Positions 1-28,395 of a stretch of 64,000 bases of DNA are shown here, piece by piece. Each line of letters begins with the position of its first letter. Position 1 is the stretch's first letter. Location: the NCBI GenBank assembly GCA_024911895.1, contig GCA_024911895.1_3948.1. One strand, written 5' to 3'. The notes below the pieces were generated by a model. The model was not told where the DNA came from, made no database searches, and worked only from the letters and a program-made list of their open reading frames with translations. The translations under genes were made by a program, and so were the position numbers. Source of the DNA: a phage.

Positions 1-1050
1 AAAAAAATATCTGTCTAGGATGTATATCTGCTTGGTAGCCCTTAACATCTCCCTTACAAGTGCTTTGCAAAATTTTAAAATATCCTTAACAATCTCTTAA
101 CAGTTCTCACAAGCTCTTAACATCTCTTCAGAGGTCTTAACAGTTTCTTAACAGAACTAACAAGGGTGTAACAGTTTCTTAACAGTTGATACATAGACTT
201 TACAGAGTCTTAACAGATGACTAACAAGAGCTAACAAGTTAATTTTAAAGAGTTATTTTGTTAAGATAATTAACAAGTTCCTAACAAGTGTTTAACCTTT
301 TTAACAAGCTGTTAACATGGTCACTATCTCTTTTCTTATCGTTCCCTTTCCTTTCTTAGTGATTCTTTAAATAGCCCTTTTAAAAGCTCTGTATAGCTCT
401 GTATAGCCCCTTTTAAGTCTCTTCCTAGTAATTACACCCCAACTGTACAGACACCTCCTTATAGGGCTTTTCAGGAGCTTTAAAGGCTATGCCAAAGGCT
501 CTTACAAGGCTTTTACGTGGTTTTAACAGAGATTTAACAAGTTGCTAACAAGTGCCTTAAAAGCATAACTATTTAGGGATTGTTAAGAAATTGTTAAGAA
601 AATGTTAAGGGGGCTAGCATTTACGTAACTTTTAAGCTACTTTTAAGCAACTTTATAGCCCCTATAACATACTTTTAAGACACTAACAATAGGATTCGAT
701 AGATTCCTATCTCATAGCCCTTTTTAGTTATTCACAAGATACTAACGAGATAATAAAGCTTACACCCTTATAAGATTCTTTTAAGGCTCTGGGAAGCTTT
801 ATAAAGGGCTTTTAAGGGTGAGGTAATGCAATCCCTTAAGTTAGGTTGATAAGGCTGTTATAGGGCTTTATAGAGCGTTTAAATGGTTGCCCTTCCCTTT
901 CGGGTTATGGGCTTATATTTAAGTTGATTTGATAAAAGGCTATAGAGTAGACTATAGAGTTATTGCTTTTTAAGGTATGAGATAGATTCTGACTTGTTAG
1001 GGAGTCTTTAAGATTCTGGGAAGGGATTAGATAGACGTAAAAAAGCCCCT
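1..1050. repeat. ~1 kb AT-rich non-coding region packed with short direct and inverted repeats (TAACAG/TAACAAG iterons, CTCTGTATAG x2, CTATAGAGT x2, TTGTTAAGAAA-type x3, several CTTTTAAG)
   Basis: no ORF with a ribosome-binding site; about 16 copies of TAACA(G/A) between ~40 and ~320, many spaced 10-11 bp apart; inverted copies (TTGTTAAG) at ~581-612. Confidence 0.6.
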
Positions 1051-1101
1051 ATGATAAGGAGCTTTTCAGGTATCTGGGGCTATTTAGCCCCGCTGCGTCG
1101 A

Positions 1102-1350
1102 TTAGTTATAATCTTGCTTGTTGTAGTACAGGGAGACGATTTTTTCTCCCCAATAATGATAAGTATAACCATCCTTGAGAACTTCTTGTTTTGTTTCCTC
1201 CCAGAACTCATCCGAAGGATTATAATCTTTGATGGTCTGACTGATAAGACCTTTCACCATTTCAAAGGCGTTATCAGTACCTGCAATGTCAAATTTAACA
1301 TCCAGAGAGGAAAAACCGAACTCGTTAACAGTAGCGCGGATAGTTGCCAT
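1102..1350 (-). CDS. hypothetical early protein (82 aa)
   Basis: ORF whose ATG follows the conserved family-A leader (GGAG 8 nt upstream); no domain recognised. Confidence 0.55.
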   Translation of the reverse strand: MATIRATVNEFGFSSLDVKFDIAGTDNAFEMVKGLISQTIKDYNPSDEFWEETKQEVLKDGYTYHYWGEKIVSLYYNKQDYN

Positions 1351-1426
1351 TTTTGAATCTCCTAGTTTAAGGACTTTACTTAGTAGGGAGGTTATCCCTC
1401 CCGTTGATTAGTAATTTACTTGTTTT
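1351..1426 (-). repeat. family-A early cassette: hairpin GGGAGG..CCCTCCC plus conserved leader ending TAAACTAGGAGATTCAAAA-ATG
   Basis: near-identical ~80-bp unit also at 1912, 3134 and 4184, each directly upstream (minus strand) of a small ORF start codon. Confidence 0.7.
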
Positions 1427-1563
1427 GATATCTGATTGCAAGCAATTTTTTAAGCTTATCTATAAAGAATCTTTTAAGCTAATCCCTTTTAGATAAACCC
1501 CCTCGAACAAAGTTACCAATGTCAAGGGGTATTGTCAACACTTTTTAAAAAGTTTTTTGTAAG

Positions 1564-1911
1564 TTATTGATTAACTGATGAATATTTTTCAGGTTTTACA
1601 TAGCTGATACGCTGACTTTTTAGCAGGTCATCCCAGATTAACGCGGCGATATGGGCATAACCGGATTCACGTAAAAGTTTCATTGTTTTACTTCTCGTTT
1701 CAAAACGGCTTGCATAGTACTCACTATTCAGCGTCGTTTTATTCCCTTCGTTGTCTACATGGATAATCTGCATCACTTGAAAGGGGCTTGTGTCCTCGCC
1801 TTTGTTCCACTGCTCAAAGTATTTTAGGCACTGCATAGGTGACATCTTATCACTTACTTGAGTTGACCATGATGCGCCAGCTTTATCGGTAATTACGGTT
1901 ACATAAGCCAT
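1564..1911 (-). CDS. hypothetical early protein (115 aa)
   Basis: ATG directly after family-A cassette leader; no domain recognised. Confidence 0.55.
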   Translation of the reverse strand: MAYVTVITDKAGASWSTQVSDKMSPMQCLKYFEQWNKGEDTSPFQVMQIIHVDNEGNKTTLNSEYYASRFETRSKTMKLLRESGYAHIAALIWDDLLKSQRISYVKPEKYSSVNQ

Positions 1912-1985
1912 TTTTAGAATCTCCAGTTTAGGACTTTATTTAGTGGGGAAGGTCATTCCCTCCCCGTTGATTGACAATTTACAGA
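1912..1985 (-). repeat. family-A early cassette (hairpin GGGGAAGG..CCCTCCCC plus conserved RBS leader)
   Basis: sequence repeat shared with 1351, 3134, 4184; abuts the ATG of ORF 1564..1911. Confidence 0.7.
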
Positions 1986-2001
1986 TTTTTATCAGGCTTG
2001 T

Positions 2002-2235
2002 CTAGTCTTTTTCAATGATAATTTCATATTGACCGTCAACACTGTCGAAATAGATTCCATCGTCATCTTCTGTCTTAAAGTAGCATTGAATATCATCACT
2101 GGCGGGATAGTCTTGCCTTGCTATCTGGCAAACCTGAATAGCGTTTTCTTTACTCCCTGTAAACTCTTCAAGCCCTTTAAAATCGCATGAATGACCATTA
2201 CAAATTGAGAGGATAAGATAAATGGTTGTAAGCAT
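2002..2235 (-). CDS. hypothetical small Cys-containing protein (77 aa) with hydrophobic N-terminus, possibly secreted
   Basis: N-terminus MLTTIYLILSICNG; 4 Cys; preceded by hairpin 2253..2269 and AAGAGG RBS. Confidence 0.45.
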   Translation of the reverse strand: MLTTIYLILSICNGHSCDFKGLEEFTGSKENAIQVCQIARQDYPASDDIQCYFKTEDDDGIYFDSVDGQYEIIIEKD

Positions 2236-2301
2236 GATTTAAGCCTCTTAAAAGCCCCTGTGAGGGGCTAATCAGTGTTTATAAGGTGATTGCATAGGTT
2301 T

Positions 2302-2844
2302 TTAGAAAAAGCTTCTTAAATCTTTCTCTGTGATGTTTCCCGTTAATGTGTCCATGATGTCACAAAAAACCTGAATACTGTCCGACTGTTGAACACTTTT
2401 AACAAGTAGCTCTAATGTCTCCTCAAGATAGTTTAAATTTGGATTATCCAGTGAAGGAAGACAAAAAGGTGAAAACATTGCATTAAACTCGGTTACGTAA
2501 ACCTTTTTAATCCAATTTAAATCGAAGTATTCTGTAAAACTTGCTACGCCAGACATATTATCACAAGAATAATCATCATTTAGGTCATCCTCTGGGATAT
2601 CAAGTTCTAAGATAACAATATTTTGGGTTTTCATCTGGAAAGCTGCGGTGATAGCGGCATTACCTAGAGCCTGCTGGATACCTTCAGAGATTATTTCTTC
2701 CTCATCGTCGCCATAGATTTTATTTTCTGGATACACGTAAAAATTGCCGTCCATATCCGAACAATTCCATGCGCCTGATGGTTTATCACCGTTATTAATC
2801 AGGTTGAGGAAATTTTCTTGAGTAGTACCGTGAAAGCATTTCAT
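2302..2844 (-). CDS. hypothetical acidic early protein (180 aa)
   Basis: ATG after family-B leader; strongly acidic composition (runs of D/E). Confidence 0.55.
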   Translation of the reverse strand: MKCFHGTTQENFLNLINNGDKPSGAWNCSDMDGNFYVYPENKIYGDDEEEIISEGIQQALGNAAITAAFQMKTQNIVILELDIPEDDLNDDYSCDNMSGVASFTEYFDLNWIKKVYVTEFNAMFSPFCLPSLDNPNLNYLEETLELLVKSVQQSDSIQVFCDIMDTLTGNITEKDLRSFF

Positions 2845-2932
2845 TTTAGAATCTCCAGTTTAGGATTGAGTGGTAAAGCTCTTTATCTGGGGCTTACTTT
2901 ATCGAACTATAAGCCCCTTGTAAAGTACTTTA
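2845..2932 (-). repeat. family-B early cassette: hairpin GGGGCTTA..TAAGCCCC, palindrome AAAGTACTTT, leader ending AAACTGGAGATTCTAAA-ATG
   Basis: 88-bp unit essentially identical to 3642..3726 and 2 mismatches from 5845..5932; abuts the ATG of ORF 2302..2844. Confidence 0.7.
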
Positions 2933-3133
2933 TTAGTTATTTTTTACAACTTTTAAAACTGCAAGGTAACCTAAGCAATAAGAATCACCGAAAAGAGTCC
3001 TACCCATGAAAGAATCCTCTTTTATATCCTTTTCAGTGACGGTTTTTTCTACTCCGTGAAAAAGGACTATATCACCGACTTTGATATCTTTGATATGAGT
3101 AGTTTCAATGTTTAAACCGTTAATAATAGCCAT
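2933..3133 (-). CDS. hypothetical early protein (66 aa)
   Basis: ATG after family-A leader. Confidence 0.5.
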   Translation of the reverse strand: MAIINGLNIETTHIKDIKVGDIVLFHGVEKTVTEKDIKEDSFMGRTLFGDSYCLGYLAVLKVVKNN

Positions 3134-3212
3134 TTTTGAATCTCCTAGTTTAAGGACTTTACTTAGTGGGGAAGGTCATTCCCTCCCCGTTGATTAGTAA
3201 TTTACTTGTTTT
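3134..3212 (-). repeat. family-A early cassette; minus-strand TTGACA-18bp-TAAATT promoter-like element at 3199..3228
   Basis: repeat family shared with 1351, 1912, 4184; abuts the ATG of ORF 2933..3133. Confidence 0.65.
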
Positions 3213-3236
3213 AAAAACCAGTGTCAACAAAATTTT

Positions 3237-3641
3237 TCAGAGTTCTGCATAAATTGCATCGCAGACATCACGAAAATCATGATTTGTTAAATTACGTTGC
3301 AACCATGTTGCGAAAAAGTCAGCGATTGCAAAATTTGCGTCATACTCAACAGATAGCCACACTTTAACAGCAAAACGAAACATTTTTAAATCAAGCTCTT
3401 TATTCATTACCTTAGATTTGCCTAACATGTCAGACATCTCATGTTGTGCACCGTCTAGCGTGATACCTGCTGCAACGTCAGCCAGTGAGTTTTTTACGTT
3501 TTCAACGTCTAAGATAACACTTTGAATCTTCCCAATAATGTTTTGCAGTGTTTCGTCTGGCGCTGATGATGTGATAACATTAATCCGGTTAACGGTCAAA
3601 CGTGCTTTTAAGATTGATAACTCACGGTTATTAATAGCCAT
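3237..3641 (-). CDS. hypothetical early protein (134 aa)
   Basis: ATG after family-B leader. Confidence 0.55.
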   Translation of the reverse strand: MAINNRELSILKARLTVNRINVITSSAPDETLQNIIGKIQSVILDVENVKNSLADVAAGITLDGAQHEMSDMLGKSKVMNKELDLKMFRFAVKVWLSVEYDANFAIADFFATWLQRNLTNHDFRDVCDAIYAEL

Positions 3642-3726
3642 TTTAGAATCTCCAGTTTAGGATTGAGTGGTAAAGCTCTTTATCTGGGGCTTACTTTATC
3701 GAACTATAAGCCCCTTGTAAAGTACT
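3642..3726 (-). repeat. family-B early cassette
   Basis: identical to 2845..2932 over ~88 bp; abuts the ATG of ORF 3237..3641. Confidence 0.7.
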
Positions 3727-3999
3727 TTATGCTAAGTGTAATTTTTTACCTTTTACCATGATGTAACTTGATGCGTTATTACTGCATACATCTTGATAAA
3801 TTCTGCGCAAACGTCCTTCGTAGTATACTTTCCAGCTAGTTGGAATCTTTTTCCCGTATCCTGTAGCAGTTTTTTGCAGTCCTGCAAGTTGCCAATCCAG
3901 AATATGTTGTTCAGCTTGTAAATCCTCGAAGTGCATTACACCGTTCACATAGTGGCGTAGGGTTATGTTTAAAGTGCGACCGTTGTTAGTAGTGTACAT
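3727..3999 (-). CDS. hypothetical early protein (90 aa); start moved from the GTG at 4041 in the ORF track to the ATG at 3999
   Basis: ATG at 3999 is preceded by CTAGGAGCTTTTAAA, the conserved leader/RBS; position 4041 is GTG. Confidence 0.5.
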   Translation of the reverse strand: MYTTNNGRTLNITLRHYVNGVMHFEDLQAEQHILDWQLAGLQKTATGYGKKIPTSWKVYYEGRLRRIYQDVCSNNASSYIMVKGKKLHLA

Positions 4000-4024
4000 T
4001 TTAAAAGCTCCTAGTTTAAGGATT

Positions 4025-4183
4025 TTATTTTGACAATTCACTAATTAAGACATCAAAGATTATATCATTATCTGCTACAGTTGCAACACCAGTGATATAA
4101 TCAATTTCTAAGATAACAACAACTTTCGTACATAAACCATCATCTATATCATTCCAGACAACTTTATCACCTGCACAAAACAT
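4025..4183 (-). CDS. hypothetical small acidic protein (52 aa), below the ORF-track size cutoff
   Basis: own translation: MFCAGDKVVWNDIDDGLCTKVVVILEIDYITGVATVADNDIIFDVLISELSK; ATG directly after family-A cassette leader. Confidence 0.5.
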   Translation of the reverse strand: MFCAGDKVVWNDIDDGLCTKVVVILEIDYITGVATVADNDIIFDVLISELSK

Positions 4184-4264
4184 TTTTGAATCTCCTAGTT
4201 TAAGGACTTTACTTAGTGGGGGAAGCTCATTCCCTCCCCGTTGATTAGTAATTTACTTGTTTTA
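4184..4264 (-). repeat. family-A early cassette
   Basis: repeat family shared with 1351, 1912, 3134; abuts the ATG of small ORF 4025..4183. Confidence 0.65.
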
Positions 4265-4274
4265 AAAACCAAAA

Positions 4275-4607
4275 TCAAGATGAATTTTTTCGTTTGCTCA
4301 ATTCTTGAACTATTACAGCATGATAATCTTTTAAATCACTGATATTTAAAGCATTTATCAGAGAGTTATAATCATCGACAAGCTGAAAATCATCTTTGAA
4401 AATGTCGCTGATTTGATAAGTTTTTGATTGAAATCTGAAGCTCATTTCTAACCGTTTTATTTGTTCATCGCTTAAACGCTCCAGAAAGCTCATTACAAGG
4501 TTATTATTGACCTGCTGCGTGATTGCCTTACTTGCCAAATTATATGCGCTATAAGCCTTGTAAAGTGCTATAATGGCAATGATTGCAGTGATACCCATCA
4601 TTAACAT
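4275..4607 (-). CDS. hypothetical membrane protein (110 aa, N-terminal TM helix)
   Basis: N-terminal hydrophobic segment GITAIIAIIALY; RBS AAGAGGAAG; overlaps the stop of the upstream gene (coupled). Confidence 0.5.
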   Translation of the reverse strand: MLMMGITAIIAIIALYKAYSAYNLASKAITQQVNNNLVMSFLERLSDEQIKRLEMSFRFQSKTYQISDIFKDDFQLVDDYNSLINALNISDLKDYHAVIVQELSKRKNSS

Positions 4608-4897
4608 GGTGCTTCCTCTTTACGTGATACCTTGCCATTTACAGTTATCTCATAAGATTCTAATAAATCGCTTTTAGACTTTACAGGGCTTTTAAAAGTA
4701 TCATCATAGATATTGACTTGTAATACAGGTTTTTTATATTCCCTGCAACTATTCCATAAGCAAATCACTACACGACGGCCTTTGATTTTTCCGTGTAACC
4801 ATTCCATAACATCATGACTATTCCTTGATGTTTCAATGAAATCAATTTTATTAAGTAATTTGCTTAGATTTTCACGGACTTTATTTGATAGTTTCAT
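4601..4897 (-). CDS. hypothetical early protein (98 aa)
   Basis: ATG after family-B-like leader. Confidence 0.5.
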   Translation of the reverse strand: MKLSNKVRENLSKLLNKIDFIETSRNSHDVMEWLHGKIKGRRVVICLWNSCREYKKPVLQVNIYDDTFKSPVKSKSDLLESYEITVNGKVSRKEEAPC

Positions 4898-4984
4898 TTT
4901 TGAATCTACAGTTTAGGACAGTTGATAAATCTCTTTATCTGGGGCTATCTTATCAGCTTGATAACCCCGTGTAAAGAGGTCTAT
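4898..4984 (-). repeat. family-B-like early cassette (variant hairpin GGGGCTATC..GATAACCCC)
   Basis: conserved leader TTTTTGAATCTACAGTTTAGGA and hairpin; abuts the ATG of ORF 4601..4897. Confidence 0.6.
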
Positions 4985-5497
4985 TTAGTCCTTAAAGATA
5001 TTCATCACTGAATCTTTTAATGCTTCCAAGCGTTCTAATACTTCAGATTCTGCGTCTGCGTTGTTCACTTCCTCTTTTAGCCTGTCATCTAAATCATCGC
5101 CGTCACTATAACACCAATCAAAAGCGTAACCAATATAAAAACTGTCTAAAATTGTTTGACCATTTGCATCGACAACTTTCGCGGCAAGGTTGTATTCTGA
5201 AGCCTCTAAATCTCTTTCTAGTTCTTTCTGTAAGCTGATGTAAGCCTCTCTTGATGGATTTTCCCGGCCTTGTTTTGCATAGTCACTTGAAAGCTGTTTA
5301 AGGCTGTAATGTAAAGGGATTGCATATTTAAATTCATTACGCTGACAGTTGGGGTTTTTAATAGTCACGCCGCCATGATGAGTGTCTGTAAACTCCCAAT
5401 TATCAAGATTATGGCTTGCTTCAAAGCAATTAACAGCTTCGTAAATGATGGAAAATTTTTCTTTTACAACTTCAAAGGTAGCTTCTACAGTTTTCAT
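4985..5497 (-). CDS. hypothetical acidic early protein (170 aa)
   Basis: ATG after family-B leader; D/E-rich. Confidence 0.55.
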   Translation of the reverse strand: MKTVEATFEVVKEKFSIIYEAVNCFEASHNLDNWEFTDTHHGGVTIKNPNCQRNEFKYAIPLHYSLKQLSSDYAKQGRENPSREAYISLQKELERDLEASEYNLAAKVVDANGQTILDSFYIGYAFDWCYSDGDDLDDRLKEEVNNADAESEVLERLEALKDSVMNIFKD

Positions 5498-5586
5498 TTT
5501 TGAATCTCCAGTTTAGGATTAATGTGGTAAAGCTCTTTATCTGGGGCTTAAGATATCAACTTTTAAGCCCCCTGTAAAGTACTTTA
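5498..5586 (-). repeat. family-B early cassette (hairpin GGGGCTTAA..TTAAGCCCC)
   Basis: close copy of 6314..6401; abuts the ATG of ORF 4985..5497. Confidence 0.7.
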
Positions 5587-5844
5587 TCAGATTAAATTGC
5601 CAGTTAATGATAAGTGCATTTTATAGCCTTTTTTGGTAAACACGTTCACTTTACCGAGTGATTTTACACCTTTAAAAAGATTGTTTGAACTGCGTTTTAA
5701 GGTTAGTTGTTTATCAGCCTTCACGCCCCATCTTACAGCAGATGGTTTTCCGTTGTCAACAACTTTCCCGCCTAACTTTTTCGCCATGATGCGAGCGTCA
5801 TCGCGAGTTTTTGCAGTAATTACAACGTTTTTGATAATAGCCAT
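5587..5844 (-). CDS. hypothetical basic early protein (85 aa)
   Basis: ATG after family-B leader; K/R-rich. Confidence 0.5.
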   Translation of the reverse strand: MAIIKNVVITAKTRDDARIMAKKLGGKVVDNGKPSAVRWGVKADKQLTLKRSSNNLFKGVKSLGKVNVFTKKGYKMHLSLTGNLI

Positions 5845-5932
5845 TTTAGAATCTCCAATTTAGGATTTAGTGGTAAAGCTCTTTATCTGGGGCTTACTTT
5901 ATCGAACTATAAGCCCCTTGTAAAGTACTTTA
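5845..5932 (-). repeat. family-B early cassette
   Basis: 2 mismatches from 2845..2932; abuts the ATG of ORF 5587..5844. Confidence 0.7.
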
Positions 5933-6313
5933 TCAGTTAATTTTGAAAATTGTCACATAACCATCACTACCGATTATTTGAGATACTCCAGCTTTTTCTA
6001 CATGATAGCCCATATTTTCAAGATGGTAAACAGCATCATCGTAACCATATGCGCCACCCTGATAACGTCTCTTATCGCATCTTATCAGGTTTTTACCACG
6101 TCCTGCAAGTGCATTCAGTACAGCTTTTTCACTTGATAGCGTACCATCTAACATGGTTGCCGTGTAATGGTTGATTTTATTCCCGTTAATATCATACTTA
6201 AAATTGAATGCGTGAACAACAATCAATTTGCCGTTAAATTTTTCATCAAGTGACTTCTCCAGTGCGTTGCGGAAGTTGTCTTTGTTGATGAATTTCGGTG
6301 CACGATAAGCCAT
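5933..6313 (-). CDS. hypothetical early protein (126 aa)
   Basis: ATG after family-A-type leader (TAAACTAGGAGATTCAAAA). Confidence 0.55.
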   Translation of the reverse strand: MAYRAPKFINKDNFRNALEKSLDEKFNGKLIVVHAFNFKYDINGNKINHYTATMLDGTLSSEKAVLNALAGRGKNLIRCDKRRYQGGAYGYDDAVYHLENMGYHVEKAGVSQIIGSDGYVTIFKIN

Positions 6314-6401
6314 TTTTGAATCTCCTAGTTTAAGGGTTAATTTAGTAAAGCTCTTTATCTGGGGCTTAAGATATCAACTTTTAAACCCCCTGTAAAGTAC
6401 T
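6314..6401 (-). repeat. family-B early cassette
   Basis: close copy of 5498..5586; abuts the ATG of ORF 5933..6313. Confidence 0.7.
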
Positions 6402-6623
6402 TTATTTGTCGTAGTAGTAAATCGCTGTCTGCCTTGTAAATTTCTTAGTGTTTCTTGTAAGGTAGCAATTAGAATTAATAGCCGTTTCTACATAGTTGCA
6501 ATAGTCGGCTTCTGATATTCTGGACCATACGCCACAGATTTGCATGTAAAAACGTTTTGCCTTTGTGTGAATGTTAGTTGTAACCATCAATTCGCGACTG
6601 TATATCATTATTTCGCGCTCCAT
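6402..6623 (-). CDS. hypothetical early protein (73 aa)
   Basis: ORF overlapping the end of 6608..6796 (translational coupling). Confidence 0.4.
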   Translation of the reverse strand: MEREIMIYSRELMVTTNIHTKAKRFYMQICGVWSRISEADYCNYVETAINSNCYLTRNTKKFTRQTAIYYYDK

Positions 6624-6796
6624 TTCTCAAAGAGTTCAGCAGGGAAACGTTCGCTATAACCTTTTAAGGAAAAAGTGTTATCTTCGTGGATAGCTTCCAC
6701 CTGATAAACCTTATAAGAGCGTATAGTTAGCATTTTGTAAGAGTATTCGTGCTTGATGTTAACCTCATCACCAACTTTAATCTTTCTTGATGCCAT
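6608..6796 (-). CDS. hypothetical early protein (62 aa), first gene downstream of the 6847..6875 promoter
   Basis: ATG after leader AAACTGGAGATTCAAAAA. Confidence 0.5.
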   Translation of the reverse strand: MASRKIKVGDEVNIKHEYSYKMLTIRSYKVYQVEAIHEDNTFSLKGYSERFPAELFEKWSAK

Positions 6797-6846
6797 TTTT
6801 TGAATCTCCAGTTTAGGAAGTGGGCTTGATTGCCCGTCTGATGCAA

Positions 6847-6875
6847 ATATTAGATAACTATACTCAAAGAGTCAA
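6847..6875 (-). promoter_or_regulatory. sigma70-like promoter (minus strand TTGACT-17bp-TAATAT) heading the leftward early cluster
   Basis: -35 at 6870..6875 and -10 at 6847..6852 read on the minus strand; 17-bp spacer; ~50 nt upstream of the ATG of ORF 6608..6796. Confidence 0.5.
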
Positions 6876-7050
6876 TAGGAATTTTAAAAATATTTTTTGC
6901 AAAAATTGTAATGAAACGGGTGCGCGCGACTACCACAAAACAGAACTACAATCAAGAATTATTTTTCAATCCGCTACAAATTTTTCTGTTGACTTTTATT
7001 TCCAGATGTGGTAGCCTTGTGAGAAATGGCGACATCCCCACCTGCACCCA

Positions 7051-7240
7051 CCTACCTGCACAATTCTAAAATGATTTTTCTTGCCAGACCTGATTTTTCT
7101 CTGCACGTTTTGAAAATGAAAAAGCTCTTTGGAGATTACCTGCACAGTTTGAAAATGAATTTTCTCTTTGGAGTTCAAAATTATCTCTACAGATTTCTCT
7201 ACAGAACTCTACCTGCACAATCCTGAAATGAAAAAGCCCT
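7051..7240. repeat. four direct repeats, core CTGCACa(a/g)tt(c/t)TGAAAATGA, at ~7051, 7099, 7136 and 7209 in a 500-bp intergenic region
   Basis: read directly; variable spacing 37-73 bp; no coding support (the plus ORF 7026..7226 is judged spurious). Confidence 0.6.
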
Positions 7241-7304
7241 CCTTACCTGAAAAATTTACCAGATAAGAAAGGCTTAGTCTATTGTGAATATACTACGAAG
7301 TTTC

Positions 7305-8090
7305 TTAGTTCTTTGCGTCTAAGAAGGTAAGCTCTGGTGAAGAGAAAACCGTCTCGATATCCTCATCAGTTCTTGCATAGATGTAAGCATCTGCATCACT
7401 GCCAAATGTTACTGCAATCCTGTGATTGCTCTTCGACAGGTGGGTAACTAGAGCGTTACTTAGAGACATCTTTTCAACCGGAGGGTTACTTTGATGTATC
7501 TTACCTTTTCTACGTCTGAAGAGGGTAACTGCATTATCTGTGAAAACTGCTACACCTGCAAAATATTCTGGTTCACAATAGTTCTTCCAACCTGAGCGTA
7601 ACTTATGGTACATTTCACCTTCATAGACATATAGGTAAACATCTACACTCTTCATCACCTGATTGATGATAACTGTGACGGCTTGAGGGTCCAGTCCACC
7701 GATACCTGCACCAATCATAGGTAACCCAACTTTCTTCAACTGATTCACTTCACAGTATCTGTTAAGCTGTTTCAAAGATGACTCTAAAGCACTGTATCGG
7801 GCATCTTTACCAGTCTTAAGCTGAGTGTAAAGGTTAGCTATACGGCCTTGTTTTAAACGTGCTACAGAGAAATTGCCTAGTAAATTCTCACAGGGCTTGT
7901 GGCCTATTCCACCTGCATACAGATAAACTTCTGTATCAGTCTCATATGCTTTTGGGTAAAGTTTAGAAATCTTGTCAGCGATACCTGCACCCATTAAGTT
8001 CATACAGTTGCAACCGTGACCGATGACGTCAAACTTACCTTTATCAAATGCTGCAAAGATATCGCCATTGATGATTTTTACAATACCCAT
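7305..8090 (-). CDS. macro-domain protein (ADP-ribose binding/processing; TARG1/OARD1-like N-terminal domain) with ~110-aa C-terminal extension
   Basis: motifs GHGCNCMNLMGAGIA and LPMIGAGIGGLD match, from memory, the TARG1-type macro signatures (CRMGAGIA ... PRIGCGLDRL). Confidence 0.55.
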   Translation of the reverse strand: MGIVKIINGDIFAAFDKGKFDVIGHGCNCMNLMGAGIADKISKLYPKAYETDTEVYLYAGGIGHKPCENLLGNFSVARLKQGRIANLYTQLKTGKDARYSALESSLKQLNRYCEVNQLKKVGLPMIGAGIGGLDPQAVTVIINQVMKSVDVYLYVYEGEMYHKLRSGWKNYCEPEYFAGVAVFTDNAVTLFRRRKGKIHQSNPPVEKMSLSNALVTHLSKSNHRIAVTFGSDADAYIYARTDEDIETVFSSPELTFLDAKN

Positions 8091-8327
8091 TTAACATCTC
8101 TCCCAAGATTCTTTATCTTCTGAAGGTTTTACACGTTGTCCTTCGTGGTCTACCCAGATACATCCACAACCTTCACAGATTACTGGCATTGCATAGCCAG
8201 CTTTAAAGTCATCTTCAGTGATAAGACCTTTTAAGTCTCCTGTATCACGCCCGAACATTTCGATAGCACAATCTTTGCAGAAATCAGCCATGAATAATTG
8301 CCTCTTGAATGATGATGCCTTCGCCAC
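8091..8327 (-). CDS. hypothetical Cys-rich small protein (78 aa)
   Basis: CKDC ... CEGCGC cysteine pairs suggest a zinc-binding fold. Confidence 0.45.
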   Translation of the reverse strand: MAKASSFKRQLFMADFCKDCAIEMFGRDTGDLKGLITEDDFKAGYAMPVICEGCGCIWVDHEGQRVKPSEDKESWERC

Positions 8328-8517
8328 AGCGACTTTTGAAGTCTTCTAATGGTTCAGAGATGAAGCCGCGTAAACGGTCACTGAATTTACGTTTTAAACC
8401 CTTCTTATAAGTTAGCACATCTTCCCCTGCAAACGGGACGACTTCATCTCTCCCTATGAATACTGCTGAACGTACAATCTTGCGGGTCTTTTTATCTCTG
8501 GCTAGTATTACTTTCAT
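8284..8517 (-). CDS. hypothetical protein (77 aa)
   Basis: ORF in an operon-like array; no domain recognised. Confidence 0.4.
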   Translation of the reverse strand: MKVILARDKKTRKIVRSAVFIGRDEVVPFAGEDVLTYKKGLKRKFSDRLRGFISEPLEDFKSRCGEGIIIQEAIIHG

Positions 8518-8818
8518 AGTTTACCTTCTCAGTTAGCTCATACAAGTCAACATGCTCAATGCTATCAATGTTGATACCAATCTTTTTGAAGCGTTCTATC
8601 ACTTCGTTGTCAGTCATCCATATCAGACACCAATGATTATGGATGGATTCCTCAAGAAGGTCAACACAATCTTTAAAAGTTTTTGTATCACTTCTCGTTC
8701 CAACTACTGCGATTGTTCCATATAGCCACTTACCATTGCCATAAGACACTTGTGCTACGCCAACTTCTTTATCTTTCTCGTAGTAAACGGCTACAAAGTC
8801 TCTTCCATTAATCTGCAT
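8492..8818 (-). CDS. hypothetical protein (108 aa)
   Basis: ORF in an operon-like array; no domain recognised. Confidence 0.45.
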   Translation of the reverse strand: MQINGRDFVAVYYEKDKEVGVAQVSYGNGKWLYGTIAVVGTRSDTKTFKDCVDLLEESIHNHWCLIWMTDNEVIERFKKIGINIDSIEHVDLYELTEKVNYESNTSQR

Positions 8819-8820
8819 AG

Positions 8821-9090
8821 TTACTTCCTCGTTTTAAGAACTGCTAAGATTTCTTTAGAATCTGGTAAGAACCATGTGTAGTGATTCTCTTTGATTTCTG
8901 GATGAGTGTCAACCTTTATTTTGCACTCTTTACCAACATGCTTAAGCTGTGCTGTGACACCTTGCATAAAGATATGACACATCACATTATCCATAATGGT
9001 TGGTATGAAGTCAATTCGCATATAAGTTTCTTTTGGTCGTGGTAGTAGTAAGTAACCTTCTACATAGAAAGTATCTTCGTTCTCTGTCAT
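8821..9090 (-). CDS. hypothetical protein (89 aa)
   Basis: ORF in an operon-like array. Confidence 0.45.
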   Translation of the reverse strand: MTENEDTFYVEGYLLLPRPKETYMRIDFIPTIMDNVMCHIFMQGVTAQLKHVGKECKIKVDTHPEIKENHYTWFLPDSKEILAVLKTRK

Positions 9091-9356
9091 TGCTGTTTGT
9101 TCCCTAATAAAATCATGTCAATAAGGTTATTAGCTTTTATAGTGCACTGGTAAAAACCATCACGATAAAACTCAAGGGCTGCTGCCACATCACTACCAGT
9201 ATTGCCTTTGACAGTGAATCTTGATTCTTCTTGAGTGTACTTGTCACTCTCACTTACTCGGGAGTTTTTGAATGTACTGTTCACTTTGTTCGTTGAACAC
9301 CCTGACATAATTATCAGTAACACAAACATTATAAAACTCTGGCTTAGTTTTTTCAT
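9087..9356 (-). CDS. lipoprotein (89-aa precursor); candidate o-spanin or superinfection-exclusion lipoprotein
   Basis: signal peptide MKKLSQSFIMFVLLIIMSGC with lipobox MSG-C; start lies inside the 3' end of 9250..9597 in another frame; AGAGG RBS. Confidence 0.45.
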   Translation of the reverse strand: MKKLSQSFIMFVLLIIMSGCSTNKVNSTFKNSRVSESDKYTQEESRFTVKGNTGSDVAAALEFYRDGFYQCTIKANNLIDMILLGNKQQ

Positions 9357-9597
9357 ATGTTAGTACCTCTTTTGTATGCTTATTCTTAGCAAGCACATCT
9401 TTCAAATCATTTTTGTAATTAGTGCTGAGTGTGGCTAAACCTTCCTGATAAGCATCTTTAGCAACACTTATCAGCTTCTCATTGTTTAACTCAGCTTCAG
9501 CAACTTGGTAGTCTCTATAAGAGTATCCTCCCCAGACACCTGCCCCAACTAAGAAAACAATTATGAAAGTAGCTTGGCAGAACTCTTTAAATGTCAT
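9250..9597 (-). CDS. type-II membrane protein with helical periplasmic domain; candidate i-spanin (115 aa)
   Basis: N-terminal TM ATFIIVFLVGAGVWGG; 107-nt out-of-frame overlap with the downstream lipoprotein gene. Confidence 0.4.
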   Translation of the reverse strand: MTFKEFCQATFIIVFLVGAGVWGGYSYRDYQVAEAELNNEKLISVAKDAYQEGLATLSTNYKNDLKDVLAKNKHTKEVLTYEKTKPEFYNVCVTDNYVRVFNEQSEQYIQKLPSK

Positions 9598-9606
9598 TTA
9601 ACAATC

Positions 9607-9638
9607 TCCTGAAATGAAAAAGGCTCCCGAAGGAGCCT
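9607..9638 (-). terminator. intrinsic terminator: 7-bp stem AGGCTCC/GGAGCCT, loop UUCG on the minus-strand RNA, then U-run
   Basis: plus strand AGGCTCC-CGAA-GGAGCCT at 9621..9638; T-run on the minus strand at 9607..9620. Confidence 0.6.
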
Positions 9639-9649
9639 GTATCTTAACC

Positions 9650-10129
9650 TTAACCGAGGACTTTAGCAAGGATATTTGCAGCCATCGAAGAAGCTTTTGC
9701 AGCAGCAACTACGCCAGCTTTGACAGTGCTATCCTTAATAGCAGATACCGTTGCAGCATCAGTAAAGAGATAAGTGATTGTTTTAGAACCACTCGTAAAG
9801 GAAAGCATAAGAGTAGTTTCCAGATTGAAAGAGCGATACGGAGCACCTTCTTTAACGATACCTTCAGCACCTAACTCTGAAGCCTTACCCATATCATAGA
9901 TAGTCATCAGGTTTTCTTTGTGTGCAGTCGTTGAACCAGCACCTTTTACGTGCTTTTTAACATTCAACAATGCACGATATTCACGAATGCTTCCATCAGC
10001 TTTTACATTAACAGCACGGAAAATTTTACCTTCAAAGTTGCCTTGAATCATTTTACGAACTACTTCAGATTTGTTTGCCGTATCGTCCAGTGCTACCGTA
10101 ATGATATTGTTCATAAGTTTTTCTCTCAA
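9650..10129 (-). CDS. hypothetical protein (159 aa)
   Basis: ORF; 4-nt ATGA overlap with the upstream gene. Confidence 0.5.
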   Translation of the reverse strand: MREKLMNNIITVALDDTANKSEVVRKMIQGNFEGKIFRAVNVKADGSIREYRALLNVKKHVKGAGSTTAHKENLMTIYDMGKASELGAEGIVKEGAPYRSFNLETTLMLSFTSGSKTITYLFTDAATVSAIKDSTVKAGVVAAAKASSMAANILAKVLG

Positions 10130-10821
10130 TGTTTAACTAACATGGTTTTAATGTGTGGAAGGATTCTGTTAACCTTCTGAACATTCTTCTCTGTATCTTC
10201 TATAAAGCATACTATATTAAAATAAGGAAGAATGCAAGACTGAATCATCCTCACTTTCAAACTTTCTGCACTTATAGAGTTAGTTCCAAAACCACGCATA
10301 AAAAGCATGTAGTCATGCTCTATGTTATGCCTTAAGAACATCTCAGTAGGTATTCTCTGAGATTCACCTCTCGCTGTCAAGAGTCCAATGGCAGCATGAT
10401 TAGCAATTGCATCAATAATACTAAAAACATATGTTGGTTTTGCTCTTACAGAGTCAAGAAGATTAGTGTATTGTGAGAATGACCCATCAGTCAATTCCGT
10501 TGAGCAATCTTCGTGATTAAAATTTGTAAGAACACCATCAATATCTGCTAAGATGAGGTTACCTTTTTCTACAAGGTCTTTATTGACTATGACTAAACTA
10601 TCACGACTTACACCTATAGCTTGTCCAGTTTCTTTATCCACAACGTTCACAATTGGTTCTGATGTGTGGAACTCTTCAAGTGAACATACAACTTCTCTTG
10701 CAGTGTCTTCAAAATCCCTGCACTGTTCTGGAGTCCATACACAGGAATCAAGACCTAACTCATGAGGATGCAAGTCATAAGCGTGGCACAGGACTTCATC
10801 AGACTTTCTTAATTTTTTCAT
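10126..10821 (-). CDS. HAD-superfamily phosphatase-like protein (231 aa)
   Basis: motif I LILADIDGVLT (DxDxV/T), motif II-like GLLTARG, acidic motif IEDTEKN. Confidence 0.4.
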   Translation of the reverse strand: MKKLRKSDEVLCHAYDLHPHELGLDSCVWTPEQCRDFEDTAREVVCSLEEFHTSEPIVNVVDKETGQAIGVSRDSLVIVNKDLVEKGNLILADIDGVLTNFNHEDCSTELTDGSFSQYTNLLDSVRAKPTYVFSIIDAIANHAAIGLLTARGESQRIPTEMFLRHNIEHDYMLFMRGFGTNSISAESLKVRMIQSCILPYFNIVCFIEDTEKNVQKVNRILPHIKTMLVKH

Positions 10822-11347
10822 GATTTACCTTAGAAATGTTTGTTGCAAATTCACATTGAGCAATAACTTTCATATTGTTATAGACATCTTGAGAGTATTT
10901 CTTAGCTTTAGGGATTTTGTACGAATACCCAGCATTATATGATGCTAAAACTTTTTGTAAAGTCTTCTTTGACTTTGGCTGACCATGTACCTTTGTCCAA
11001 AACTCAAGCTCTTTATGTGTTTCTTTTGCGGCATAGTCAAAGTCTTTTAAGAGTTTCTTTTTAGCAACATTAGGACTAATTTTGTTACGCTTTACAACAG
11101 TCTTCAAGTGATTCTGGAAGATACCGTAGTCATGGGTCTTTTTATTTTCTACCTTCAGACCTAACTCTGACTCTTGTAAGGCTATAGCTGCTAGAGTGAT
11201 ACCCCAACCTTTACCCATGTTATTCTCACCATACTGGTAAGCTTTTAACATGTTAACTTTTTGGCTAATTGATAGCTCTGGGCAGTCAACTGCATAAGAT
11301 AAGTGTGCTGTAAACATTAAGCACAAGCCTAGAATCAATTTCTTCAT
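10799..11347 (-). CDS. secreted lytic transglycosylase (SLT domain) protein, possible endolysin or cell-wall remodelling enzyme
   Basis: signal peptide MKKLILGLCLMFTAHLSYA; SLT family-1 motifs in order: LQESELG (E-S), DYGIFQ, SYNAGYS. Confidence 0.5.
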   Translation of the reverse strand: MKKLILGLCLMFTAHLSYAVDCPELSISQKVNMLKAYQYGENNMGKGWGITLAAIALQESELGLKVENKKTHDYGIFQNHLKTVVKRNKISPNVAKKKLLKDFDYAAKETHKELEFWTKVHGQPKSKKTLQKVLASYNAGYSYKIPKAKKYSQDVYNNMKVIAQCEFATNISKVNHEKIKKV

Positions 11348-11412
11348 TGGTTCTCCTGTTTAGTTTATCGTGACAACAATTATACAGCACTCTGCACAAA
11401 ATACAAATAAAA

Positions 11413-11430
11413 AAGGCCGCCGAAGCAGCC
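11413..11430 (-). terminator. hairpin terminator after rIIB (7-bp stem with one mismatch, UUCG loop), followed by a minus-strand U-run
   Basis: plus AGGCCGC-CGAA-GCAGCCT; the plus-strand A-run at 11401..11412 gives the minus-strand U-run. Confidence 0.5.
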
Positions 11431-11447
11431 TTTTAAGAAATTACTTA

Positions 11448-12557
11448 TTAGATTTCACGTTTACGTTGAGAGATAAGTTCACCAGCAGTGCCAACGATGA
11501 CATGCAAAGCTTCAGTCTTACCATCCCATGCTTTCAGCACTTTACGTTGATTATCAACGATTGCTGCAACTTCATAACGAGAGGAACGCATCTTCATATC
11601 GTTGTAATCAGTTGGTACGGATACAACATCTCGTGGATGGACACGAACCTTCAGGATGGTATCACCTGAGAAGCAACGAACATAATCCCAAGCGCCAACA
11701 TGAAGACCTTGAGAGCAAGTTACGTTACGGTTATTATCAACCATCCAACGTGGCATTTCTACAATGTTACCCAAATCATTAGGCACTTTGTAGGTGTGAG
11801 AGTCAACCAGCTTGCCTTCACGAGTAGAGACTTTCTTCCAACCAATGATGTAGCCCTCTTCATCAATTTCAACATCAAGGTGAGATACAAATCCCCAAAG
11901 TTGTTCTACAGAATCTTTAGATGGGTTTTCCATCAGTTTTTCGAAGAACATTACAAGTCGTTCAAAACCTTTATCACCAGTTTTCATCATGTGAAGAATA
12001 CGGTCAACCAGAGTAGAACGCATCTCAACAGCACCGTAGAATAGCTTGTCACCTTTGATTGTAATAGCACCCTGAGTGAAGTTTTCGATAGACTTACGAA
12101 TGTTCATTAGTTCAAATGCTTTCTTGAACTCACCTTTCACAACATGAACTACAATCTCTTGATAGTTTGGATGAGTAGACTCAACAATTTCAGATTCTGA
12201 ACCATAAGTCATAATTACAGAGTCACCAGTAATCATGTACTCAATCTTGTCATCTTTCTGCATAGCTTCGTGCAGTTTATTTACTGGAGCTTTCTGTACA
12301 GTCTCTTTAACGACCTTTTCAACTGGTTTGCCAGCTTTCTTTTTAAAAGTCTTAGCAACTTGCTTCAAAGTCTTCGTAGCTGGTGTAGAAGTTGCCTTTT
12401 TATTCCCTTTTAGGGTTGCTTCATGACGCTCTACAGCACGACCAACTGAACGGGTTGAAGTGTTAAATTTCTGTGCAATAGCTGTTTTGGTCAGCTTACC
12501 TTCTTTTACCAGTTTGTAAATTTCTGCGTCAATCTGTGCTTTAGTTTTAGTAGTCAT
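11448..12557 (-). CDS. rIIB: rIIB-like protein
   Basis: aligns by eye with T4 rIIB as recalled: LFYGAVEMRSTLVDRIL, CSQGLHVGAWDY, KVRVHPRDVVSVPTDYNDMKMR; lies directly downstream of rIIA. Confidence 0.75.
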   Translation of the reverse strand: MTTKTKAQIDAEIYKLVKEGKLTKTAIAQKFNTSTRSVGRAVERHEATLKGNKKATSTPATKTLKQVAKTFKKKAGKPVEKVVKETVQKAPVNKLHEAMQKDDKIEYMITGDSVIMTYGSESEIVESTHPNYQEIVVHVVKGEFKKAFELMNIRKSIENFTQGAITIKGDKLFYGAVEMRSTLVDRILHMMKTGDKGFERLVMFFEKLMENPSKDSVEQLWGFVSHLDVEIDEEGYIIGWKKVSTREGKLVDSHTYKVPNDLGNIVEMPRWMVDNNRNVTCSQGLHVGAWDYVRCFSGDTILKVRVHPRDVVSVPTDYNDMKMRSSRYEVAAIVDNQRKVLKAWDGKTEALHVIVGTAGELISQRKREI

Positions 12558-12602
12558 CTTATTACTCTCTCTTGTTAGTTAATCAATCAATTTGTGAGGC
12601 TA

Positions 12603-12632
12603 TTCTAAGGGGCTTTGAAGCCCCTTGTCAAA
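12603..12632 (-). promoter_or_regulatory. sigma70-like promoter for rIIB whose 18-bp spacer is a perfect hairpin (TTGACA-AGGGGCTTCAAAGCCCCT-TAGAAT on the minus strand)
   Basis: -35 at plus 12627..12632, -10 at plus 12603..12608; hairpin 12607..12626. Confidence 0.45.
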
Positions 12633-12636
12633 CACT

Positions 12637-15003
12637 TTAATCGTAAATTGTTGTACCTTCTGGAACACATTTCACATCAAAGCCTAAAAACTTACTCACT
12701 TCGATAGGTGATACTTTATTCCAATCTAAGTGTGAAAGCAAGAAGTTTTCTTGTTTTCTTTTTGAAAGATAGTTTGTCAGCTTAATGACCATACGGTCAC
12801 CAGCTTTCTTAATTTTCTTGTACAGCTTTGTATCATTGTCAAGGCACTCTTTCAAAGTTTGCAACCGACTAATAGTGTAAGTGTATGCAAACGGTGCAGC
12901 AACGTATTGGATTTTACCAAACATTGCCTCAACAGCATCTTCATTACCTTCTAAGAAGATAGTTTTGTTTGTGTCTCGTGAATAGCAATAGCCACGAGAA
13001 ATCTTCCTGTTATTGAACGTAAAGTTTCTGGCAATAATCCAACTGCTTGTAAGGTCAAGGACACCATTCATATAGATACGTGTCATATACCTGTTATGAT
13101 TAATCCAATGAACATCAGTTAAGCTGTCGTTCAAGAGTTTCTCATCTACTTCAATCCAGTCTTCTGGTATCTTTTTCCAATTTGCTTTTCGGAAAACATA
13201 GACTGTCTTTTCAATGACATTGGCAACTGACTTAGCTACATCTTCTGGAGATGAGCAAAAACATTCGCCATCAACTGTGTCACCTACTGCCTTAATATAA
13301 AGCTGAGGCTCTTCAATCGTGTCTAAGTCTTCTGACACCTCTTTGTATGAAGCTACACCTTCTGCTGGAACAGCTTTCCAGAGTTTTACAACACCTCTTA
13401 CAGCTTCTTTACGCTGGTAATGGTGTTCCTTATCAGACATCTTCACAATCTTTAACAAGCTTTTATCAAGTTTGTGCAGATTGATTAGGTCGTCTAGCTC
13501 TTCCTCATTAGAGAATACAAAGACAATACCATTGTATCTGTGAAACAGACTTGACTCGCTGGCATAGTCTCGACATGCACCACGCAGAATCTGATTGCGT
13601 CCTACAGTCTTCTCAGTACCATTTTTATTGCGACGGTCATTTATAACAAACAAAAACTGTTCAATTTGACTTTTACGCATTGCGCCAAATATATTGAACA
13701 TACTTGCCTCTTGAGTGTAGGAAAGCGCTGTTGCACGAATCTTACTCTCTAAAGAGTTAAACTTAACATAAGCAACTGGATTATAAAGATAATCTACTTT
13801 AGGGATGTTGTTTCCGTTCCTATCAACCTTAATATTACCTTTACCATCACGTTCATAGATAACTGAGCCGTCTTCTGCGTAGATAATTCCACGACGAATG
13901 TTTAGTAATTCTTCTTCCAGAGAATCAAGCTTAACGCCTCCCCACTCTAGCTTTGGACACACAGCATTAAACATCTCTCGTGAGTTCAAACGTAACTCAG
14001 CATAAGCCTGTGCAGCATCCATGAGTGTAGGTTGGCTATTAACTTTCTTGATAACATCCTTTGTAATGGCTTCAGTTATCTTTTTAGTAGCCTCAATGAT
14101 AACATTTTTTGTCGTGTCATTCATCTGCAATGCTTCACGAGAAGCTGCAATAGCAACTGAACCAATAGGCATGTAGATGTTTACAAGGTCTACGCTCCTA
14201 CGGAAAAATTCTGGCAATACTTTGAAGAAATCATCTCCAAGTAATGCTTCCATGTTAACAGGGTAGGCAATGTTACCCATCACCACATTAAACTCTGTTC
14301 TGTTAGCGCCAGAACGCCAGCTTTGCTTATGAATCATGGCATCATAAACACCTTCTTCACGGGCAATGACGTTCATATCTGCTAATACATCGTCGTACTC
14401 AATATTACTTTCTGGTTTTACAGTGAAGTATGAGTACACATTCCCAGCTTCTTCAAAGAACTTTGAGATACGGTGGTCAGCAACTGCCACACGTACAGCT
14501 AAACCATTAGGTTCTTTTGTTGGGTTAGTTGTCAGCTTAGTTACTTGAGGGATACCATTCTCAAGATAAACAGAGTACTTATTAACAACACCGTCAACAT
14601 AGCTAGATACTGTGAATGACTGAGCAATTGCAAATGGTGACTTTGAGCCGATACCCATTGCACCAATGTAGTCATTAGAGTCATTCTTCGTAGAAGCTCC
14701 ATAGTTTAGGTACAAACTCATAACTTTATCATGAGTCAATCCAGTTCCAAAATCACGAACTTCGAAGTAAGGCTCAAAACGAGTAGGTAAATGCACATGG
14801 AATGGAATGTTCTCTTTTCCAGCTTCTTTCTGAGCATCTACTGCGTTACATGACAGTTCACGAATCACTGCCCTTTCTTTAAAGGTGTATACACCAGAAC
14901 TCAAAAGGCTGAACATCTCAGGTGTCATTGTAATCTGTGCTTGAGACGTCTCTAAAGAAGTTGAACTCTTAATCACTTCTGCGTGGTCATTTACCATGCG
15001 CAT
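12637..15003 (-). CDS. rIIA: rIIA-like protein with N-terminal GHKL/HATPase-like domain
   Basis: AVIRELSCNAVDA, EVRDFGTGL, SNDYIGAMGIGSKSPF match the T4 rIIA N-terminus as recalled; 788 aa. Confidence 0.75.
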   Translation of the reverse strand: MRMVNDHAEVIKSSTSLETSQAQITMTPEMFSLLSSGVYTFKERAVIRELSCNAVDAQKEAGKENIPFHVHLPTRFEPYFEVRDFGTGLTHDKVMSLYLNYGASTKNDSNDYIGAMGIGSKSPFAIAQSFTVSSYVDGVVNKYSVYLENGIPQVTKLTTNPTKEPNGLAVRVAVADHRISKFFEEAGNVYSYFTVKPESNIEYDDVLADMNVIAREEGVYDAMIHKQSWRSGANRTEFNVVMGNIAYPVNMEALLGDDFFKVLPEFFRRSVDLVNIYMPIGSVAIAASREALQMNDTTKNVIIEATKKITEAITKDVIKKVNSQPTLMDAAQAYAELRLNSREMFNAVCPKLEWGGVKLDSLEEELLNIRRGIIYAEDGSVIYERDGKGNIKVDRNGNNIPKVDYLYNPVAYVKFNSLESKIRATALSYTQEASMFNIFGAMRKSQIEQFLFVINDRRNKNGTEKTVGRNQILRGACRDYASESSLFHRYNGIVFVFSNEEELDDLINLHKLDKSLLKIVKMSDKEHHYQRKEAVRGVVKLWKAVPAEGVASYKEVSEDLDTIEEPQLYIKAVGDTVDGECFCSSPEDVAKSVANVIEKTVYVFRKANWKKIPEDWIEVDEKLLNDSLTDVHWINHNRYMTRIYMNGVLDLTSSWIIARNFTFNNRKISRGYCYSRDTNKTIFLEGNEDAVEAMFGKIQYVAAPFAYTYTISRLQTLKECLDNDTKLYKKIKKAGDRMVIKLTNYLSKRKQENFLLSHLDWNKVSPIEVSKFLGFDVKCVPEGTTIYD

Positions 15004-15532: not shown

Positions 15533-15564
15533 TCCAGAAATTAAAAAGGCTCCCGTAGGAGCCT
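15533..15564 (-). terminator. intrinsic terminator after the Nampt-like gene (stem AGGCTCC/GGAGCCT, UACG loop, U-run)
   Basis: plus AGGCTCC-CGTA-GGAGCCT at 15547..15564; minus-strand T-run at 15533..15546. Confidence 0.6.
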
Positions 15565-24262: not shown

Positions 24263-24288
24263 ATGCTAAAAAGGTCTCCGAAGAGACC
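24263..24288 (-). terminator. UUCG-loop hairpin with U-run just upstream of nrdD (terminator or attenuator)
   Basis: plus GGTCTC-CGAA-GAGACC at 24273..24288; minus-strand T-run at 24263..24272. Confidence 0.45.
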
Positions 24289-28367: not shown

Positions 28368-28395
28368 CAGATGAAAAGAGCCTCCGAAGAGGCTC
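28368..28395 (-). terminator. UUCG-loop hairpin plus U-run between gene 28402..28743 and nrdA
   Basis: plus GAGCCTC-CGAA-GAGGCTC at 28378..28395. Confidence 0.5.

Follow-up and report, generated by a model that had tools for sequence, protein, structure and literature searches.

The gene at 10799..11347 on the minus strand of a 64,000-nt stretch of phage DNA (the window) encodes, by sequence comparison, a member of the T4 Vs.1/Felix O1 ORF3 family (PHROG 600). We consider it likely that its product is a lytic transglycosylase exported through Sec to the periplasm, where it would serve as an accessory peptidoglycan-remodelling enzyme; that it is the endolysin of this phage is very unlikely. 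The sequence, the T4 homology and the SLT similarity of the family are already on record. What we add is firmer evidence, drawn from the fold, invariant residues, export signals, a cysteine pair and operon structure, together with a correction concerning the endolysin.

A Vs.1-family gene next to rIIB

The window belongs to a Felix O1-like myovirus (Ounavirinae, Felixounavirus). When the 5 kb around the gene (9000-14000) were used as a DNA query, 270 phage records matched, the best being Escherichia phage Pr103Blw at 96.9% identity. The original prediction had placed a secreted-type SLT gene beside rIIB, and a minus-strand ORF is found at exactly 10799-11347; its translation contains all of the strings quoted in support, namely MKKLILGLCLMFTAHLSYA followed by VDCPE, LQESELG, DYGIFQ and SYNAGYS.

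10799..11347, minus strand: CDS of the Vs.1-type precursor, ATG start, 182 aa, 20.8 kDa
11448..12557: rIIB, the upstream neighbour of the gene

The ORF is a real gene under strong purifying selection and not a chance reading frame, because in addition to the 270 matching phage records it matches the PHROG 600 profile (E=1.1e-57; protein residues 1-170 against 176 of the 178 profile positions) and shows dN/dS values of 0.08 and 0.13 against its orthologues in Suspvirus and Mooglevirus. Felix O1 ORF3 (NP_944779) is identical to the window protein at 180 of 182 positions (99%). Its GenBank note reads ‘hypothetical 20.7 kD protein in vs-regB intergenic region’, so the T4 Vs.1 counterpart had already been identified. 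In a BLASTP comparison, T4 Vs.1 (181 aa vs 182 aa) aligns over the full length at 32% identity (E=2e-16). Nolan et al. reported a marginal SLT similarity of vs.1 in 2006 (PMC1524935), and we found no enzymatic or genetic data on any Vs.1-family protein in the searchable literature.

Among the records listed, those of Felixounavirus label this gene ‘hypothetical protein’. It can be renamed ‘exported SLT-domain lytic transglycosylase, Vs.1 family’, which is a routine annotation improvement. Other Vs.1 homologues are labelled ‘endoribonuclease’ in several records, some of them T4-like, or ‘C-type lysozyme/alpha-lactalbumin family’, and the note in the Citrobacter phage Mordin record reads ‘similar to T4 endoribonuclease RegB and contains lysozyme-like domain’. 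The ‘endoribonuclease’ label was apparently carried over from regB, the neighbouring gene in T4, and these labels are propagated annotation errors.

Fold and catalytic motifs

Scored alone against Pfam SLT (PF01464), the window protein reaches 18.8 bits (E=0.0012), below the gathering cut-off of 21.3 bits; the SLT/GH23 assignment therefore rests on transitive homology and structure. An HMM match to SLT/GH23 had been proposed as a check on the original prediction, and it falls short for the window protein itself and holds for its family: T4 Vs.1 scores 25.1 bits, above the cut-off, and SLT matches at E<=1e-3 are found in 40 of 60 sampled family members (best 2.8e-12). A precomputed SLT match also exists for orthologues of 37-39% identity whose gene order is conserved. 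As a single sequence, the window protein found no match in the PDB by phmmer at E<=10 and only a spurious ArpU match in NCBIfam. A 60-sequence family profile matches EtgA, a T3SS-associated lytic enzyme, at E=4e-6 as its best PDB sequence match, and a 15-sequence profile matches both EtgA and goose lysozyme with Glu59 aligned to the catalytic Glu of each (SRESHAG in the goose enzyme).

The AlphaFold2 model (mean pLDDT 84.8, core >90) predicts a lysozyme-like alpha-helical fold that can be superposed on solved GH23 enzymes. The best Foldseek matches in the PDB and BFVD are all GH23 or ‘Transglycosylase SLT domain’ proteins, headed in the PDB by the g-type lysozymes of cod and ostrich and a GH23 chitinase. 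The transitive and structural evidence is consistent throughout and places the window protein in the GH23/family-1 lytic transglycosylase fold.

10802..11290, minus strand: mature protein, aa 20-182, a lysozyme-like helical domain of 18.6 kDa and pI 9.7
Within the mature protein: motif I, E59-S60; motif II, G75..Q78; motif III, S136-Y137-N138-A139-G140; motif IV, Y151
11171..11173, minus strand: codon of Glu59, the predicted single acid/base catalyst, invariant in 151/151

The family-1 lytic transglycosylase motifs named in the original prediction are present, and we counted their residues in 151 aligned family members. Glu59, Tyr137, Gly140 and Tyr151 are invariant (151/151 each). In motif I, Ser60 is kept in 145/151; in motif II, Gly75 is kept in 143/151 and Gln78 in 90/151, with His at the latter position in 53; and in motif III, Ser136 is found in 137/151 and Asn138 in 142/151.

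GH23 also includes true hydrolases such as g-type lysozymes and chitinases. Position 73, within HDYG, is Asp in the Ounavirinae clade and in 53/151 members, and Asp73 aligns with Asp60 of EtgA, so lysozyme-like or hybrid chemistry retains a small probability. Together with the g-type lysozymes and the chitinase at the top of the PDB structure matches, and with EtgA as the best sequence match, this residue would speak for a muramidase (a g-type-lysozyme-like hydrolase) or an EtgA-like hybrid, a reading that would leave localisation and the accessory role unchanged. However, position 73 is Ser in 80/151 members, including the canonical SxGxxQ context of family-1 lytic transglycosylases, so a second carboxylate is not required by the family, and all four of the four family-1 motifs are present. 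We therefore regard a hydrolase or hybrid as unlikely. Pure lytic transglycosylase chemistry is what the motifs suggest for the window protein.

Predicted export signals and a cysteine pair

The cleavable signal peptide claimed at the outset, ending in HLSYA before VD, can be read from the sequence with all three of its regions.

11291..11347, minus strand: predicted signal peptide, aa 1-19, with n-region MKK, h-region LILGLCLMFTA and c-region HLSYA

Signal peptidase I is predicted to cut between Ala19 and Val20, with Ser at -3 and Ala at -1. The h-region comprises 11 residues with a mean Kyte-Doolittle value of 2.6 and is followed by a His and the S-Y-A site. A crude hand rule, which asks for K/R among residues 1-8 and for a mean Kyte-Doolittle value >= 2.0 over a stretch of 10 residues, is positive in 122/141 full-length relatives (87%), 118 of which also have a small -3/-1 site.

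Two cysteines point to the same compartment. Cys22, which is residue 3 after the predicted cut, and Cys165 occur together in 71 family members and are jointly missing from 69, with a mixed state in 11 (Fisher p=1e-29, uncorrected for phylogeny). A neighbour-joining tree from which those regions were left out gives 14 independent contrasts, and in 8 of these the two positions change jointly. A Cys22-Cys165 disulfide is thus likely from the sequences, and since the pair is gained and lost together, it fits a disulfide formed in an oxidising compartment and lends independent support to export. Taken at the level of sequence, Sec export of the window protein is a well-supported prediction.

Other modes of membrane attachment were considered. 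A lipoprotein of the MltA-E type would carry a lipobox ([LVI][ASTVI][GAS]C), and none is present; the sole candidate, L-G-L-C9, was rejected because it has Leu at -1 and Cys9 is unconserved in relatives. SAR endolysins carry an uncleaved, weakly hydrophobic N-terminal TM segment of ~18-20 residues that is rich in Gly, Ala and Ser. A SAR anchor was likewise rejected: the N-terminal segment of the window protein is too short and too hydrophobic, and the S-Y-A site follows it.

Transcription unit, terminators and a candidate promoter

The gene had been credited with its own UUCG-loop terminator upstream. The hairpin is real, but it belongs to rIIB.

11401..11434, minus strand: rIIB terminator (Felix O1 ‘t2’), with a T-tract after its UUCG-loop hairpin
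11379..11384, minus strand: candidate -10 hexamer TATAAT, within the TGTGCAG..TGTATAAT block
11353..11357, minus strand: Shine-Dalgarno sequence AGGAG, 5 nt between AGGAG and the ATG
10126..10821, minus strand: polynucleotide kinase (pnk) gene, overlapping the 3' end of the gene by 23 nt
9650..10114, minus strand: counterpart of Felix O1 ORF5 (PHROG 2267, function unassigned), third gene of the unit
9621..9638, minus strand: UUCG-loop terminator ‘t5’ (Felix O1), closing the three-gene unit

The hairpin at 11434..11411 has 10 pairs (-17.3 kcal/mol, z = -4.45) and starts 14 nt past the rIIB stop codon. Letter for letter it is the Felix O1 terminator t2, and relatives differ from it by G-U vs A-U pairs. 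Given its position after the rIIB stop codon and its identity to t2, we conclude that the rIIA-rIIB unit is terminated here. The interval from t2 to the gene contains the TGTGCAG..TGTATAAT block, which is conserved in Felixounavirus, Suspvirus and Mooglevirus and has a perfect -10 and a weak -35. This 20-nt TATAAT block occurs once in the window and was found by eye and by its conservation; a consensus sigma-70 scan of the terminator-to-gene interval listed no promoter. We treat the block as a candidate promoter only.

On the downstream side, the 23-nt overlap with pnk indicates that the two genes are probably co-transcribed and translationally coupled. The ORF3-type gene is the first of a three-gene unit (ORF3, pnk, ORF5) bracketed by t2 and t5, an arrangement that is also annotated in the curated Citrobacter phage Mordin record. 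Rfam returned nothing credible over 8000-13000. A Pfam search of the neighbouring pnk, ORF5 and spanin genes gave no matches, and a paired periplasmic inhibitor is therefore not supported.

Several features of the surrounding sequence deserve mention in their own right. Hairpins with a GC stem, a UUCG (once UACG) tetraloop and a T-tract occur five times on the minus strand, with 0.03 expected:

9618-9636, 11411-11429, 15544-15562, 24269-24287 and 28375-28393, all minus strand: UUCG/UACG terminators

This hairpin is the standard terminator type of the phage (Felix O1 t2, t5, t111, t116 and others). On the minus strand of 9087-10821, polynucleotide kinase is followed by a small ORF and by overlapping i-spanin and o-spanin genes:

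9250-9597, minus strand: i-spanin, with an N-terminal TM segment
9087-9356, minus strand: o-spanin, with a lipobox-like MSGC

We take this order to resemble T4 pseT - pseT.1 - pseT.2/pseT.3, and by that analogy the linkage of pnk and spanins may be ancestral to both groups. Positions 1-8000 of the window hold families of repeated intergenic cassettes (for example 1340-1451, 1903-2014, 3123-3237, 4173-4288 and 6303-6352), including copies of a 108-nt cassette at 2842, 3639, 5496, 5842 and 6314. Read on the minus strand, each cassette has a GGGGAGGGAATGACCTTCCCC-type hairpin and then a conserved leader with AAACTAGGAGATTCAAAAATG that precedes several small genes. The cassettes have the appearance of regulatory/RBS modules that are reiterated in the early region.

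The endolysin is encoded elsewhere

The original prediction noted that no lysozyme-type endolysin is recognisable in the window, and it raised the possibility that the exported protein is a secretion-dependent endolysin or, alternatively, a peptidoglycan-remodelling enzyme. The first observation is correct: the lysin of Pr103Blw, used as a tblastn query against the 64-kb window, gave no match. The lysozyme is missing because the window stops ~5 kb short of the lysin gene. Pr103Blw (96.9% identical) encodes a 154-aa ‘lysis protein’ of the T4-lysozyme type at 5866-6330, which maps outside the window, and the window spans the terminal-repeat region to ~23.6 kb of the Pr103Blw map. Window positions 3-614 match the short direct terminal repeat of Pr103Blw (612-1 of that record, reverse orientation). 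As the window starts within the terminal repeat, the source record was opened differently, and the lysin lies ~5 kb past the left edge.

The genus thus has a separate lysin, which undercuts the endolysin half of the original prediction. In Felix O1 it is gp35, with Phage_lysozyme and cd00737 domains (PMC3185647), and the identical lysin of C600M2 and CL1, both close relatives of the window, has been purified and is lytic in vitro (PMC9156722). T4 likewise keeps vs.1 alongside its own endolysin gene e. By classical genetics, T4 lysis depends on gene e, mutants of which fail to lyse. The holin and the spanins, too, have genes of their own, those of the spanins (9087-9597) following directly after t5. 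With endolysin, holin and spanins all accounted for, we take the window protein to be an accessory and not the lysis enzyme.

A secretory endolysin would be exported early by Sec and restrained until a holin or pinholin depolarises the membrane, as signal-peptide and SAR endolysins are. The combination of a signal peptide with a muralytic fold would suit such a protein, and the gene lies 1.2 kb upstream of the spanin genes. In end-point RT-PCR of Felix O1, the ORF3 transcript was maximal at 25 min (‘middle’), together with those of ORF1, ORF4, ORF6 and the lysin ORF35 (PMC3185647, Table 3), and ORF6 is the i-spanin. Since ORF3 shares its transcript class with the lysin and the i-spanin, it could make some contribution to lysis. 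Against the endolysin reading stand the soluble T4-lysozyme-type lysin of the genus and the fact that T4 carries vs.1 yet needs gene e. The N-terminus also speaks against it, as 11 strongly hydrophobic residues followed by S-Y-A look like a cleavable signal peptide and not a long Gly/Ala-rich SAR anchor. Moreover, two genes and a terminator separate the gene from the spanins. We judge a secretory endolysin to be very improbable. The reading that survives is the alternative of a peptidoglycan-remodelling enzyme, a predicted Sec-type exported protein of the GH23/SLT fold with family-1 motifs.

Phage SLT domains are often virion-associated, and Foldseek also found weak BFVD matches to tape-measure and tail SLT domains and to PRD1 P7. 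A virion-borne hydrolase that aids tail penetration, in the manner of T7 gp16, PRD1 P7 or phiKZ gp181, would account for these matches. However, the 17 proteins that were identified in Felix O1 virions do not include Gp3 (PMC3185647), a cleavable Sec signal peptide would direct the protein to the periplasm and away from cytoplasmic virion assembly, and the gene sits among the early-middle rII/pnk genes, distant from the structural module. We give this explanation hardly any weight. T4 uses the periplasmic proteins Sp and Imm for exclusion, and an equally slight chance attaches to a catalytically inert, exported peptidoglycan- or lysozyme-binding protein that has only the SLT fold, for instance a superinfection-exclusion factor, for which the marginal Pfam score and the fact that activity has never been reported would speak, but in which the invariance of the catalytic Glu and the substrate-binding motif residues across 151 divergent sequences would be unexpected.

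Proposed function

For the Felix O1 ORF3-type protein we infer export, disulfide, chemistry and biological role as follows. The gene would be transcribed in mid-infection, probably from a promoter just past the rIIB terminator. Sec would export the precursor, signal peptidase I would cut after Ala19, and the Cys22-Cys165 disulfide would probably lock the protein in the periplasm. There, the basic 18.6-kDa GH23-fold protein would use Glu59 as its only acid/base catalyst to cleave the MurNAc-beta-1,4-GlcNAc bond, yielding the 1,6-anhydroMurNAc ends of lytic transglycosylase chemistry. Its periplasmic remodelling of peptidoglycan would be accessory to the cytoplasmic T4-lysozyme-type endolysin, the holin and the spanins. 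Candidate purposes are pre-weakening of the sacculus, effects on superinfection and, by analogy with EtgA and VirB1, making room for trans-envelope complexes such as the spanins.

A further and rather doubtful idea is that the Vs.1 family is the phage counterpart of ‘specialised’ lytic transglycosylases (EtgA, VirB1), exported before lysis to open or thin the sacculus locally. If true, such local opening could let i-/o-spanin bridges thread through the wall, and a pre-weakened wall could speed lysis where the endolysin alone is slow. In that case, large virulent phages of Gram-negatives would share a widely conserved accessory component of envelope take-over and lysis that has so far escaped recognition.

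Distribution of the family

By tblastn, the Vs.1 family occurs in 2,129 of 50,697 phage records, among them T4-like phages, Vi01-like Ackermannviridae, Ounavirinae, and Aeromonas and Vibrio jumbo phages. A conserved enzyme that is predicted to be exported and to cleave the wall is found in about 4% of sequenced phage genomes, T4 included. An exhaustive profile search resolved the family into a discrete clade of 1,265 clusters at 50% identity, with members almost always 160-200 aa long. Kolesnikvirus shares the rIIB - SLT - pnk order, and so does a metagenomic relative at 37% identity. T4 vs.1, flanked by regB and vs, likewise has pre-late genes around it.

Two records bear unexpected host names. 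‘Campylobacter phage A126’ (MG065668.1, 43 kb) has a gene whose product matches the window protein at 100% identity, from which the record looks like a mislabelled or contaminant Felixounavirus sequence. In the ‘Campylobacter coli’ assembly GCA_053226485.1, a Vs.1-like gene lies three genes from a chimallin gene, which marks the contig as that of a jumbo phage.

Comparison with known systems

Among family-1 lytic transglycosylases (PF01464, GH23), Slt70, MltC, MltE and MltF differ from the window protein, which has neither accessory domains nor a lipobox. EtgA, IagB, IpgF and VirB1 are enzymes of secretion systems, whereas the window gene belongs to a virulent phage and has no T3SS or T4SS cluster around it; the contexts we examined were all phage (Ounavirinae, T4-like, Vi01-like and jumbo-phage contigs), and none was a T3SS, T4SS or flagellar cluster. 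No EscI-like partner is known for the window protein. The similarity to EtgA/VirB1-type enzymes is too remote to place the window protein in that subfamily.

Signal-peptide and SAR endolysins (fOg44 Lys44, P1 Lyz, phage 21 R) are muralytic and exported by Sec before lysis, which is how the window protein would resemble them. They differ in having a T4-lysozyme-type fold, in contrast to GH23 here, and in that a separate canonical endolysin exists here; SAR endolysins differ further in their SAR anchor, where the window protein has a short, cleavable-looking signal peptide.

T4 Vs.1 has its size, signal-peptide-like N-terminus and motifs in common with the window protein, but it lacks the Cys22/Cys165 pair and Asp73, and its gene does not follow rIIB. 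The gene for Felix O1 ORF3 occupies the same position as the window gene, after rIIB and terminator t2.
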